From the sequence record FJ483837.1: a DNA stretch of 3,412 nt; one strand, given 5' to 3'. The position numbers and the translations under genes are program-made. Each line of letters begins with the position of its first letter. Within the stretch, counting starts at the first letter, position 1. Positions 1-3,412 of the stretch are shown one piece after another. Below the pieces are notes generated by a model. It saw only the letters and a list, made by a program, of their open reading frames with translations. It was not told where the DNA came from and did not search any database. Source of the DNA: Escherichia phage BZ13.

Positions 1-82
1 GTTTTGCAAGCGACTCATTTCTGCAGTCTTTTCACCATGCCGTTAGGTTTAGATGACGGTATATCCATATACCGGAGGATCT
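1..82 (+). other. 5' untranslated leader, probably 5'-truncated
   Basis: No convincing ORF before the maturation gene; the frame of the maturation ORF is closed by TAG at 50-52. The window begins GTTTTGC rather than the GGG expected at the 5' end of MS2-like genomes, suggesting missing 5' nucleotides. Confidence 0.5.
57..74 (+). promoter_or_regulatory. Stem-loop next to the maturation-gene ribosome binding site
   Basis: CGGTATA (57-63) is the exact reverse complement of TATACCG (68-74), loop TCCA (64-67). The 3' arm abuts/overlaps the Shine-Dalgarno GGAGG (74-78) upstream of ATG 83. Functional role is inferred by analogy to structure-controlled maturation-gene translation in MS2. Confidence 0.35.
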
Positions 83-1255
83 ATGTTTCCGAAGTCGAAT
101 ATAGACAGAAATTACAAGGTTACACTTATATCTTACGACGAGAAAGGGAAGCTTGTTTCCGACGACTCTTTCGAGCAAGTCGAAAACTATCTCTTTCAAA
201 ATCGTTCGAATACGTATAAACCCGGTTATATCCGTCGTGACTTCCGAAGACCAACGAACTTTTGGAATGGCTTTCGCTATTTCAATCAGCCAGTTGGTAC
301 CTTCACTCGGAAACTCTCTGATGGTGGGAGACAAGTTGCTGATTATGGCATCGTGAACCCTAATAAGTTCACGGGCAACAGCCAGCACTTGGGGGACAAC
401 ATGGTTATTTACCCTGGTCCCTTTTCTATTAATATTGATCACCGAGCTTCTGTCGAAGTCCTCAATAAACTTTCGCAATCAAACCTCAATATTGGGGTTG
501 CAATTGCTGAAGCTAAGATGACTGCTTCATTACTCGCTAAACAATCAATAGCTCTCATCAGAGCCTACACTGCTGCAAAGCGCGGTAAATGGCGAGAGGT
601 GCTTTCTCAGCTCCTCATCTCCGAACACCGTTTCAGAGCTCCTGTTAAGGATCTCGGAGGTCGATGGCTCGAACTGCAGTACGGTTGGTTACCTCTTATG
701 AGCGATATGAAAGCTGCATATGATTTGCTTACGCAAACCAAACTGCCTGCTTTCATGCCCTTGAGGGTTACCCGTACCGTTGGCGGAACGCACAATTATA
801 AAGTGCGCAACGTCGAATCTGCAGGGGATACTTGGTCCTATAGCGATCGTTTGTCGGTGAATTACCGAATATGGTATTTCATTTCCGATCCACGGCTCGC
901 ATGGGCTAGTTCCCTTGGGCTTCTAAACCCTCTAGAAATCTATTGGGAGAAGACGCCTTGGTCTTTCGTCGTTGACTGGTTCTTACCTGTTGGTAATCTT
1001 ATAGAAGCCATGAGTAATCCTCTTGGCCTCGATATTATTTCCGGCACGAAGACCTGGCAACTCGAATCAAAACTTAATGCGACGCTTACAGCTTCGGGTT
1101 GGTCTGGAACTGCAAAGTTATCTGCATACGCGAAAGCATATGACAGGTCAACTTTCTACTCCTTTCCAACTCCTATGCCTTATGTGAAATCCCCACTTAG
1201 TGGGCTTCACTTAGCGAATGCATTAGCCTTAATCAACCAACGCCTGAAAAGGTAA
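83..1255 (+). CDS. mat: Maturation (A / assembly) protein, 390 aa from ATG 83; in-frame alternative start at ATG 53 (400 aa)
   Basis: Long + strand ORF ending TAA 1253-1255. GGAGG at 74-78 lies 4 nt upstream of ATG 83; ATG 53 has only a weak AGG upstream. The translation contains blocks recalled from the MS2 A protein (e.g. [16 protein letters not shown] vs MS2 [16 protein letters not shown]; [16 protein letters not shown] vs DARLAWLSSLGILNPL; SFVVDW; C-terminal ALALI-QRL). First gene of the canonical levivirus order. Confidence 0.88.
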
Positions 1256-1271
1256 TAATGGAGTTAGCCAT

Positions 1272-1664
1272 ATGGCAACTTTACGCAGTTTCGTACTCGT
1301 CGATAATGGCGGTACGGGGAATGTTACTGTCGTTCCTGTTAGCAATGCCAACGGCGTCGCTGAGTGGCTTTCTAATAACTCGCGCAGTCAAGCTTATCGC
1401 GTGACTGCCAGTTATCGTGCGTCAGGCGCGGACAAGCGCAAGTACACCATCAAACTTGAAGTACCGAAAATCGTTACTCAAGTTGTTAACGGTGTCGAGC
1501 TGCCTGTTTCCGCATGGAAGGCTTATGCCTCTATTGACCTGACCATCCCGATCTTTGCTGCAACTGACGATGTGACTGTTATTTCCAAGTCACTCGCTGG
1601 TCTGTTCAAAGTTGGGAACCCTATCGCTGAAGCTATCTCTTCGCAGAGCGGCTTCTACGCGTAA
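1272..1664 (+). CDS. cp: Coat (capsid) protein, 130 aa including initiator Met
   Basis: ORF 1272-1664 with GGAG (1260-1263) 8 nt upstream of the ATG. The translation (MATLRSFVLVDNGGTGNVTVVPVSNANGVAEWLSNNSRSQAYRVT...IPIFAATDD...GNPIAEAISSQSGFYA) is plainly homologous to the MS2 coat (ASNFTQFVLVDNGGTGDVTVAPSNFANGVAEWISSNSRSQAYKVT...) and, from memory, nearly identical to the group II phage GA coat. Mature length of 129 aa matches MS2/GA coats. Confidence 0.95.
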   Translation: MATLRSFVLVDNGGTGNVTVVPVSNANGVAEWLSNNSRSQAYRVTASYRASGADKRKYTIKLEVPKIVTQVVNGVELPVSAWKAYASIDLTIPIFAATDDVTVISKSLAGLFKVGNPIAEAISSQSGFYA

Positions 1665-1855
1665 TGGGTCTGAAAGCAAAACATAAGGAAAACCTATGTT
1701 CCGATTCACAGAGATCGAAAAGACTCTATGTATGGATCGCACTCGCGATTGTGCTGTCCGATTTCACGTCTATCTTCAGTCATTGGATATGGGGTCTTCT
1801 GATCCTCATTCTCCAGACTTTGATGGACTTGCCTACCTTCGTGATGAGTGTTTAA
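1664..1855 (+). CDS. lys: Lysis protein (MS2 L-like single-gene lysis protein), 63 aa, +1 frame overlapping coat stop and replicase 5' region
   Basis: ATG 1664-1666 shares its A with the coat stop codon TAA 1662-1664 (UAAUG). Basic N-terminus (KAKHK...RSKR) is followed by a hydrophobic segment LYVWIALAIVLSDFTS that closely matches the MS2 L segment LYVLIFLAIFLSKFTN, including the conserved Leu-Ser dipeptide (codons at 1754-1759). Position between coat and replicase in a different frame is canonical for MS2-like phages. Confidence 0.8.
   Translation: MGLKAKHKENLCSDSQRSKRLYVWIALAIVLSDFTSIFSHWIWGLLILILQTLMDLPTFVMSV
1681..1699 (+). promoter_or_regulatory. Translational operator hairpin (coat-protein binding site) containing the replicase start codon
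   Basis: ACAUAAGGAAAACCUAUGU: stem 1681-1685 paired with 1695-1699, unpaired A at 1686, G1687-C1694 and G1688-C1693, loop AAAA 1689-1692. The replicase AUG (1696-1698) is in the 3' arm. Same architecture as the MS2 operator ACAUGAGGAUUACCCAUGU (7 bp stem, bulged A, 4-nt loop), with A rather than U at loop position -5. Confidence 0.8.
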
Positions 1856-3294
1856 CTAAACATCCTTCACTAGGAAACAGTAATTCGGATGCACGCCGTA
1901 AGGAATTGGCATATGCCAAACTTATGGATAGTGATCAAAGATGCAAAATCCAAAACAGTAACGGATACGACTACTCTCACATCGAAAGTAGCGTACTGAG
2001 TGGTATACTCAAGACTGCTCAGGCCCTTGTGGCGAACTTGCTTACGGGTTTTGAATCTCACTTCCTGAACGATTGTTCATTCTCCAATGGAGCCTCACAA
2101 GGGTTCAAGTTGCGGGATGCAGCGCCGTTTAAGAAGATCGCTGGGCAAGCAACCGTTACAGCTCCTGCTTATAACATTGCCGTGGCCGCCGTTAAAACGT
2201 GCGCGCCGTGGTATGCTTATATGCAGGAAACGTATGGCGATGAAACCAGATGGTTTCGTCGGGTATACGGCAACGGTTTGTTTTCTGTTCCGAAGAACAA
2301 TAAAATAGATCGGGCTGCCTGTAAGGAGCCTGATATGAATATGTACCTTCAGAAGGGGGCGGGATCTTTTATAAGAAAACGCCTTCGCTCCGTCGGTATA
2401 GATCTTAACGATCAAACGTGCAATCAGGAATTAGCCCGACTTGGCAGCATTGATGGTTCACTCGCTACTATTGATCTTAGTAGCGCTAGTGATTCTGTCT
2501 CTGACCGCCTTGTCTGGGATTTACTTCCGCCACACGTTTATTCATACCTCGCTCGCATCCGTTCATCGTTCACTATGATCGATGGTCGGTTGCACAAGTG
2601 GGGCCTGTTTTCTACTATGGGAAACGGCTTTACATTCGAACTCGAGTCCATGATTTTCTGGGCTTTGAGTAAGAGTGTTATGCTGTCCATGGGTGTTACT
2701 GGCTCATTAGGCATCTACGGTGATGATATAATCGTCCCCGTTGAGTGTGCCCCAACTCTCCTTAAGGTACTATCCGCTGTGAACTTTCTTCCTAATAAGA
2801 AGAAGACGTTCACTACGGGTTACTTTCGTGAAAGTTGTGGTGCTCACTTCTTTAAAGGTGCCGACATGAAACCTTTTTACTGCAAGCGGCCAATGGAAAC
2901 CCTTCCCGATGTCATGTTGCTATGCAACAGGATAAGGGGTTGGCAGACCGTTGGTGGAATGTCAGATCCGCGGCTCTTTCCTATTTGGAAGGAGTTTGCT
3001 GATATGATTCCGCCGAAGTTTAAGGGTGGATGCAACCTGGATCGCGATACTTACCTCGTTTCACCGGATAAACCTGGTGTCACATTGGTTCGAGTCGCTA
3101 AGGTACGTTCTGGTTTTAACCATTCGTTCCCGTACGGCCATGAAAATGGTCGCTACGTCCACTGGTTGCATATGGGATCGGGAGAAGTTCTCGAGACCAT
3201 ATCCTCCGCCAGGTTTAGGTGCAAACCTAACTCGGAATGGAGAACACAGATCCCTCTATTTCCTCAGGAATTAGAGGCCTGCGTTCTCTCCTGA
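1696..3294 (+). CDS. rep: RNA-dependent RNA replicase, beta subunit (532 aa)
   Basis: Long + strand ORF ending TGA 3292-3294. Catalytic YGDD motif at nt 2716-2727 within GIYGDDIIVP; AAGGA (1685-1689) lies 6 nt upstream of the ATG. Last and largest gene of the levivirus order, with length close to the MS2 replicase. Confidence 0.95.
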   Translation: MFRFTEIEKTLCMDRTRDCAVRFHVYLQSLDMGSSDPHSPDFDGLAYLRDECLTKHPSLGNSNSDARRKELAYAKLMDSDQRCKIQNSNGYDYSHIESSVLSGILKTAQALVANLLTGFESHFLNDCSFSNGASQGFKLRDAAPFKKIAGQATVTAPAYNIAVAAVKTCAPWYAYMQETYGDETRWFRRVYGNGLFSVPKNNKIDRAACKEPDMNMYLQKGAGSFIRKRLRSVGIDLNDQTCNQELARLGSIDGSLATIDLSSASDSVSDRLVWDLLPPHVYSYLARIRSSFTMIDGRLHKWGLFSTMGNGFTFELESMIFWALSKSVMLSMGVTGSLGIYGDDIIVPVECAPTLLKVLSAVNFLPNKKKTFTTGYFRESCGAHFFKGADMKPFYCKRPMETLPDVMLLCNRIRGWQTVGGMSDPRLFPIWKEFADMIPPKFKGGCNLDRDTYLVSPDKPGVTLVRVAKVRSGFNHSFPYGHENGRYVHWLHMGSGEVLETISSARFRCKPNSEWRTQIPLFPQELEACVLS

Positions 3295-3343
3295 TAGTAT
3301 CAGGACCTCCCCGGATGGGGTGGGTGTGACCGAAAGGCCACTA

Positions 3344-3360
3344 TGGGGGTGAATCCCCCA
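3344..3360 (+). other. 3' UTR hairpin (6 bp G/C-rich stem, UGAAU loop)
   Basis: UGGGGG (3344-3349) pairs with CCCCCA (3355-3360), loop 3350-3354; exact complementarity read from the sequence. Confidence 0.6.
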
Positions 3361-3375
3361 CCGCCCAAAAGGCGG
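3361..3375 (+). other. 3' UTR hairpin (5 bp stem, CAAAA loop)
   Basis: CCGCC (3361-3365) pairs with GGCGG (3371-3375), loop 3366-3370. Confidence 0.55.
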
Positions 3376-3380
3376 TTTTA

Positions 3381-3407
3381 GGTGACTAGTTTGCTTGGCT
3401 AGTCACC
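3381..3407 (+). other. 3'-terminal hairpin preceding the single-stranded ACCCA tail
   Basis: GGTGACTAG (3381-3389) is the exact reverse complement of CTAGTCACC (3399-3407), loop 3390-3398; followed by ACCCA (3408-3412). Analogous to the terminal hairpin of the MS2 3' domain. Confidence 0.65.
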
Positions 3408-3412
3408 ACCCA

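Follow-up and report, generated by a model that had tools for sequence, protein, structure and literature searches.

Phage GA (X03869 / NC_001426) is the prototype of genogroup II of the F-specific single-stranded RNA (ssRNA) coliphages, a group whose members are practical indicators of human faecal pollution, and KU1 (AF227250) and T72 (FJ483838) represent the other sublineage of that group. MS2 (NC_001417), a genogroup I phage (Emesvirus zinderi), carries four genes in the same order as the DNA described below. The Q-beta-like phages of the genus Qubevirus (formerly Allolevivirus) are set apart by a coat read-through protein (A1), the lack of a separate lysis gene and a genome of ~4.2 kb.

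The stretch of DNA that we analysed (the window; 3,412 nucleotides) can with great confidence be read as cDNA of a genogroup II F-specific ssRNA coliphage, corresponding to the plus strand of its genomic RNA, and most likely derives from phage BZ13 strain DL10 (FJ483837). Sequence comparisons support its placement in the family Fiersviridae, genus Emesvirus (formerly Levivirus), species Emesvirus japonicum, within the GA/BZ13 lineage and with E. coli as its host. An initial annotation, made from the letters alone, had taken it for the cDNA of an MS2/GA-like ssRNA coliphage genome and not a cellular locus, and this was borne out by an end-to-end match to GA and by the assignment of its proteins to four Pfam families. 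The phage is an already known, ordinary one and not a new system. Since the window is the genome of a known ssRNA phage, its other findings are to be read in RNA-phage terms: there is one coding strand, hairpins are translational controls, minus-strand open reading frames (ORFs) are chance, and no feature here is to be taken as a novel cellular or DNA-phage feature.

Gene content and relationship to GA and MS2

The ORF listing contains four genes, all on the + strand and in the Emesvirus order of maturation, coat, lysis and replicase. Their lengths (390, 130, 63 and 532 codons) are the same as in GA and BZ13 strain DL20 and fall within the sizes that characterize group II (390/130/63-64/532). 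The order and the sizes of 390/129/63/532 aa in the initial annotation were thereby all recovered, 129 being the length of the mature coat protein after Met removal. All four products score above the curated (gathering) Pfam cut-off of 25 bits. The product of the maturation (A) protein gene (83..1255, + strand, 390 aa; Phage_mat-A, 210.5 bits, E = 5.3e-62; identical to ACT66717.1) is predicted to be a virion protein that binds the pilus and the RNA, and among PDB structures it matches the MS2 maturation chain 5tc1_M (E = 2.6e-75). The coat gene (1272..1664, + strand, 130 codons; Levi_coat, 132.2 bits, E = 1.5e-38; ACT66718.1) matches the GA capsid structure 1gav (E = 1.2e-79). It is followed by the lysis gene (1664..1855, + strand, 63 aa; Phage_MS2_lysis, 29.3 bits; ACT66719.1) and by the gene for the replicase, the RNA-dependent RNA polymerase beta subunit (1696..3294, + strand, 532 aa; RNA_replicase_B, 727.5 bits, E = 1.2e-218; ACT66720.1). 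The replicase has the YGDD motif that had been noticed earlier (aa 341-344, nt 2716-2727), and it matches Q-beta replicase structures in the PDB over aa 39-443 only (E = 5e-65). By these Pfam and structure matches the coat protein and the replicase both clearly belong to the Fiersviridae.

The lysis gene had been described as overlapping in the +1 frame. This is correct relative to the replicase gene, which it overlaps by 160 nt in the +1 frame ((1664-1696) mod 3 = 1); its overlap with the coat gene is just one base, within the UAAUG at 1662-1666. The lysis start thus lies in the coat stop codon, whereas that of MS2, whose lysis gene encodes 75 aa, lies ~50 nt inside the coat gene. KU1 and T72 share species, gene order and operator with the window, but in both an insertion of 18 nt separates the coat stop from the lysis start, where the window has the GA-type UAAUG; they also have three additional nt ahead of the operator and a lysis protein of 64 rather than 63 aa. 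Assignment to Qubevirus was rejected: a UAA closes the coat gene, a distinct lysis ORF of 63 aa comes directly after it, and the genome size here is ~3.46 kb. A minus-strand ORF (478..32, 148 aa) was likewise dismissed as a chance ORF, its equivalents holding stop codons in GA, DL20 and KU1.

At the nucleotide level the window matches GA over its full length at ~94.4–94.5% identity (megablast; 94.43% in a global alignment, with one internal 1-nt indel), a difference of ~190 substitutions, and matches DL20 end to end at ~93.9–94.3% (megablast and global alignment). Identity to KU1 and T72 is 85–86%, and the only megablast match to MS2, whose genome is ~100 nt longer, is a single ~400-nt patch in the replicase gene at 74%, covering 12% of the query. 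The proteins follow the same pattern. Identity of the maturation protein is 96.2% to GA versus 41.5% to MS2, and that of the coat protein is 98.5% versus 62.3%; the lysis protein is 95.2% identical to that of GA, 96.8% to that of DL20 and 29.3% to that of MS2, and the replicase 96.4%, 97.7% and 51.0%, respectively, so that the MS2 proteins span 29–62%. The nucleotide and protein comparisons with reference genomes thus place GA far above MS2, as had been predicted, and the coat and lysis proteins are indeed most like those of group II (GA/BZ13) phages. The window further shares with GA its gene order, all four gene lengths, the UAAUG coat/lysis junction, the operator hairpin and the 3' terminal hairpin. 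Codon changes relative to GA are mostly synonymous ones at third positions (synonymous/non-synonymous: maturation 53/15, coat 17/2, replicase 58/19), which argues that the maturation, coat and replicase genes are under purifying selection.

Natural recombinants have been claimed in this genus (the JS strains; PMC3499819), and the sister record DL20 has an MS2-type 5' end, so we considered whether the window might be a mosaic of the two group II sublineages or of groups I and II. Sliding-window identity to GA and DL20, however, stays at 88–98.5% over the whole length and is higher throughout than that to KU1 and T72, except that the values tie at 1701-1900. The 102 sites that the window has in common with GA alone are intermingled with the 84 that it has in common with DL20 alone and show no clean breakpoint, and no MS2-like segment is present beyond the conserved replicase core. 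We therefore regard a recombinant origin as highly improbable.

Identity of the isolate

In a protein look-up, all 1,115 residues of the four proteins were identical to those of ACT66717-ACT66720, consecutive accessions that are filed under taxid 329853 and assigned to a record of Escherichia phage BZ13 which, like the window, is 3412 nt long. The adjoining accession blocks belong to FJ483838 (T72; ACT66721-24) and FJ483839 (DL20; ACT66725-28), and FJ483837 is listed as strain DL10 in Table 1 of PMC3499819. Compared at the protein level, DL10 and the window are identical in all four products and have no known difference.

Alternatively, the window might represent a new group II strain of Emesvirus japonicum that had not been deposited before and only resembles DL10, given that the nearest nucleotide record in the searched phage collection is just 94.5% identical and the best full-length environmental contig 96.2% identical. 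Ten environmental contigs (none longer than 3425 nt) encode an identical coat protein while being 94.9–98.2% identical to the window. An undeposited strain would nevertheless have to match four consecutive GenBank accessions exactly, and because other strains differ at 2–19 residues per protein, an independent isolate that matches all four proteins and also has this truncated length is very unlikely; we give this alternative very little weight. DL10 itself, whose source was a Tijuana River mussel, was reportedly described by Friedman et al. 2009, and the strain contributes nothing beyond that 2009 deposit.

Operator and predicted translational control

The MS2-type operator hairpin that had been predicted is present at 1681..1699 (+ strand) and contains the replicase AUG (1696-1698). 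On folding, its sequence (ACAUA-A-GG-AAAA-CC-UAUGU) adopts the MS2 operator architecture of a 5-bp stem, a bulged A, a 2-bp stem and a 4-nt loop, with the AUG in the stem; the loop is AAAA here and AUUA in MS2. It is invariant in five group II genomes and aligns to positions 16-36 of the Rfam MS2 operator family (RF02359) at 18.1 bits, which is under the gathering score of 40. This hairpin is the presumed binding site of the coat dimer, by analogy with MS2 and with the GA annotation, which gives it as a potential coat-protein binding site. The permissive Rfam scan returned this sub-threshold operator match and one other, to the sR43 snoRNA (minus strand, 594-622; E = 0.16), which we attribute to chance, and nothing else.

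A candidate lysis-gene control stem-loop lies at the end of the coat gene (1630..1654, + strand), at the equivalent of GA 1683-1707, where the GA annotation also calls it potential. Its upper stem is conserved in five genomes. Its predicted fold (-6.1 kcal/mol) is no better than those of shuffled sequences (z = -0.98), so we make no claim for it.

Gene content, homology, hairpins and near-identity to GA were computed here, and the steps of the following scheme are drawn from MS2/GA levivirus biology. The phage RNA would serve as both genome and mRNA, and virions would attach to the F pilus through the maturation protein. Ribosomes are expected to enter mainly at the coat gene. Coat dimers bound to the hairpin at 1681-1699 would hide the replicase AUG, by which replicase synthesis would be shut off and packaging nucleated. 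The lysis gene may be translated by ribosomes that, after finishing the coat gene at its stop codon, restart at the overlapping AUG of the UAAUG. Finally, the replicase subunit, together with host EF-Tu, EF-Ts and S1, would copy the RNA from its 3' CCA end.

In MS2 the long-range Min Jou pairing was recovered, as a control, by a crude duplex scan; in group II the partners that it finds vary in position between strains, and this simple scan found no Min Jou-type partner at a conserved position in group II coat genes. It is conceivable, although we consider it rather unlikely, that group II phages, this one included, couple replicase to coat translation through a long-range pairing other than that of MS2. 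Such a pairing, if real, would be a matter of regulation inside a known phage and not a new entity.

The ends of the genome

The initial annotation had called the window essentially a whole genome, and this stands for its 3' end, which is complete; ~51-53 nt are absent at the 5' end, and the genome is better described as near-complete. Alignments with GA, KU1 and environmental contigs (L006-L009) identify positions 1..82 (+ strand) as a partial 5' untranslated region (UTR). The first letter of the window corresponds to GA nt 52-54 or KU1 nt 53, and therefore the first ~51-53 nt of the full genome are missing. The missing part includes the terminal GG(G)-hairpin, which is needed for replication. 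A related contig, L006, reaches 43 nt further 5' and shows this hairpin, and its absence from the window is, as judged from these alignments, that of an incomplete record and not of a phage without the element. A 2-nt gap at window position 8-9 is also seen relative to all relatives, GA included.

Within the remaining 5' UTR a 9-bp hairpin (37..62, + strand) lies upstream of the maturation ribosome binding site (GGAGG, 74-78). It has a predicted energy of -10.8 kcal/mol (z = -4.3; none of 200 shuffles was as good), and its sequence is nearly invariant across the group II genomes. An upstream in-frame ATG at 53, which would give a 400-aa maturation ORF, was considered and rejected. It falls inside this conserved hairpin and has no Shine-Dalgarno sequence, whereas the ATG at 83 is homologous among relatives and is preceded by the GGAGG. 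The equivalent of the ATG at 53 is GTG in GA, T72 and contigs L006-L009, and a 1-nt insertion shifts the position out of frame in DL20 and contigs L007-L009.

Since the sequence is given in DNA form and does not begin at a natural 5' terminus, it could in principle be a cDNA cloned or integrated in a larger DNA replicon (an expression plasmid, a reverse-genetics clone or an endogenous element). Its 3412-nt source, however, carries no vector sequence and has ACCACCCA, the natural 3' terminus, as its end. Searches of 72,556 plasmids and of 5,426 complete E. coli genomes gave no match to the window, and no contig that encodes these proteins is longer than 3,486 nt, so that none exceeds genome length. 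We consider such an origin exceedingly improbable, and a copy of the free phage RNA genome is the reading that we keep.

The complete 3' UTR (3295..3412, + strand) consists of a series of hairpins, a terminal hairpin and the ACCACCCA terminus. The terminus occupies 3405-3412, in agreement with the levivirus 3' end claimed at the outset; it is common to MS2 and the window and is described in PMC3499819 as marking the 3' ends of genogroup I and II genomes. The 11-bp terminal hairpin (3381-3407) folds at -17.4 kcal/mol (z = -4.3), and it and the terminus are invariant across group II genomes. Relative to GA, one hairpin of the 3' UTR has a 1-nt deletion (window ~3356), where neighbouring base changes preserve the pairing. 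The consensus fold of the 3' UTR from five genomes has 37 pairs, four of which show compensatory changes.

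Relationship to group II phages

The window is an already known, deposited phage genome. An exact-sequence look-up finds its four proteins under the public accessions ACT66717.1–ACT66720.1 ("Escherichia phage BZ13"), on a contig that is likewise exactly 3412 nt long, in keeping with the initial annotation's view of a known kind of entity; the accession blocks that come next are those of FJ483838 (strain T72) and then FJ483839 (strain DL20). FJ483837 is strain DL10 (mussel, Tijuana River, CA), the third strain of this group of records, in Table 1 of PMC3499819, and the window is almost certainly this entry.

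Megablast of the window against 50,697 phage records gave full-length matches to group II phages only, namely GA (X03869 / NC_001426; 94.5% identity), BZ13 strain DL20 (94.3%), T72 (85.9%) and KU1 (85.0%), whereas MS2-group records match at 74–75% and only across some 400 nt in the core of the replicase gene. The proteins are 95.2–98.5% identical to those of GA and 29.3–62.3% identical to those of MS2 (maturation protein 96.2% versus 41.5%, coat 98.5% versus 62.3%, lysis 95.2% versus 29.3% and replicase 96.4% versus 51.0%). Both comparisons had been proposed in the initial annotation, and they uphold its assignment to a levivirus-family genome closest to GA/BZ13. Taxonomically, GA, KU1 and BZ13 all fall within Emesvirus japonicum, Fiersviridae. 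Global alignment with GA gives 94.43% identity with a single internal indel, of 1 nt in the 3' UTR, and the codon differences are chiefly synonymous and at the third position, a pattern that would be expected of actively constrained genes. Sliding-window identity and informative-site counts revealed no recombination breakpoint in the window.

Ten public metagenome or sequencing-run contigs (L006–L015, from ENA and Logan assemblies) encode the identical coat protein and are 94.9–98.2% identical to the window in nucleotide sequence; thus a DL10-like lineage is still turning up in environmental samples. Searches of 5,426 complete E. coli genomes and 72,556 plasmids found no similar DNA, which agrees with the initial annotation's view that the window is not a cellular locus. 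All protein-cluster members and all ten of these contigs are at most about 3.5 kb long, and nothing suggests an embedded DNA copy.

Genes and their expected expression

The plus strand of the 3412-nt window carries four open reading frames, all of which score above the curated cut-off of 25 bits for their levivirus Pfam families. The maturation gene (83–1255) encodes 390 aa from an ATG that follows GGAGG at 74–78 (Phage_mat-A, 210.5 bits), and it is followed by the coat gene (1272–1664; 130 codons; Levi_coat, 132.2 bits), the lysis gene (1664–1855; 63 aa; Phage_MS2_lysis, 29.3 bits) and the replicase gene (1696–3294; 532 aa; RNA_replicase_B, 727.5 bits), with the YGDD motif at replicase residues 341–344 (nt 2716–2727). 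The lysis gene had been described as overlapping, and this is true of the replicase gene, with which it shares 160 nt; it has just one base in common with the coat gene. Alignment with group II genomes shows that this coat/lysis junction is UAAUG, of the GA type, and that KU1 and T72 carry an 18-nt insertion there which the window lacks. A 148-aa minus-strand frame antisense to the maturation gene (32–478, TTG start) was rejected as a chance ORF, since its equivalents in GA, DL20 and KU1 are interrupted by stop codons.

By analogy with established MS2/GA biology, one RNA would serve as both genome and messenger, with the coat gene as the main ribosome entry site. Termination at the coat UAA would allow reinitiation at the overlapping AUG and so yield a little of the 63-aa, presumably membrane-active lysis protein. 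The replicase subunit is expected to join host EF-Tu, EF-Ts and S1; coat dimers would later occupy the operator hairpin, block the replicase AUG and nucleate encapsidation, and the maturation protein, at one per virion, would bind the RNA and the F pilus.

RNA elements

In the operator hairpin (1681–1699, plus strand, like the other elements described here), stems of 5 bp and 2 bp are separated by a bulged A and capped by a 4-nt loop, and the replicase AUG lies in the 3' arm. Folding gives this hairpin the architecture of the MS2 operator, although the loop is AAAA in the window and AUUA in MS2. Its alignment to the hairpin portion of Rfam RF02359 scores 18.1 bits, short of the gathering score of 40, and the hairpin is unchanged across five group II genomes; the GA depositors annotated their operator as a potential coat-binding site. 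A second conserved hairpin (37–62) lies in the 5' UTR, upstream of the maturation-gene ribosome binding site.

The 3' UTR is a set of hairpins with compensatory changes at four pairs among the five genomes, and it closes with a highly stable terminal hairpin of 11 bp (−17.4 kcal/mol, z = −4.3). The hairpin at 3344–3361 has a 1-nt deletion relative to GA. From GA to the window its 5' arm changes A to G (GGAGG to GGGGG) and its 3' arm changes from CCCTCC to CCCCC, so that pairing is kept because the 5'-arm change is matched in the 3' arm; these changes are a minor instance of covariation in support of the hairpin.

In MS2 the long-range Min Jou pairing couples replicase to coat translation. A crude RNAduplex scan that paired the coat gene with the 18 nt preceding the operator, run on window 1272–1700 and on comparison sequences L001–L006, recovered the known pairing in the MS2 control (1426–1443 with 1729–1745) and detected no conserved equivalent at a consistent position in the group II genomes. 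The best partner was coat 1417–1430 in the window, DL20 and environmental contig L006, and lay elsewhere in GA, KU1 and T72.

Ends of the record

Open reading frames, Pfam matches and folding place the four genes, YGDD, operator and 3' end where the initial annotation had put them. Its description of an essentially whole genome holds for the 3' end, which is complete and terminates in ACCACCCA; the 5' end is incomplete. The first base aligns with GA nt 52–54 and KU1 nt 53, and same-lineage environmental contigs reach further upstream by up to 43 nt (L006, which starts CCTTTCGGGGCGCTGCTTTCATCCTTGAAGGCGCTAGGAATG...), so about 51–53 nt, with the 5' terminal genome hairpin, are absent from the window; in GA and KU1 the 5' terminus is of the GG(G) type. 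With this truncation and the extent of the lysis overlap corrected, the annotation was right in both observation and interpretation.

The window begins (1–20) GTTTTGCAAGCGACTC, two nucleotides short of its relatives: GA and four environmental contigs (L006–L009) read GCATAAGCG and KU1 reads GCAAAAGCG, so that the bases missing at 8–9 are TA in the former and AA in KU1. The gap borders the record's truncated 5' end and for that reason may be an artefact of priming or of a read end and not a real deletion.

The DL20 record has an unusual 5' end of its own. Apart from a TT insertion, its first 82 or so nt (1–82) are those found at the 5' end of MS2 (genogroup I), and it switches from MS2-type to group II sequence at ...ACCATGCCGTTAGG. 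Since group II contigs with DL20-like markers (L007–L009) have an ordinary group II 5' UTR, the DL20 record looks like either a GI/GII recombinant or a chimera that arose in the laboratory.
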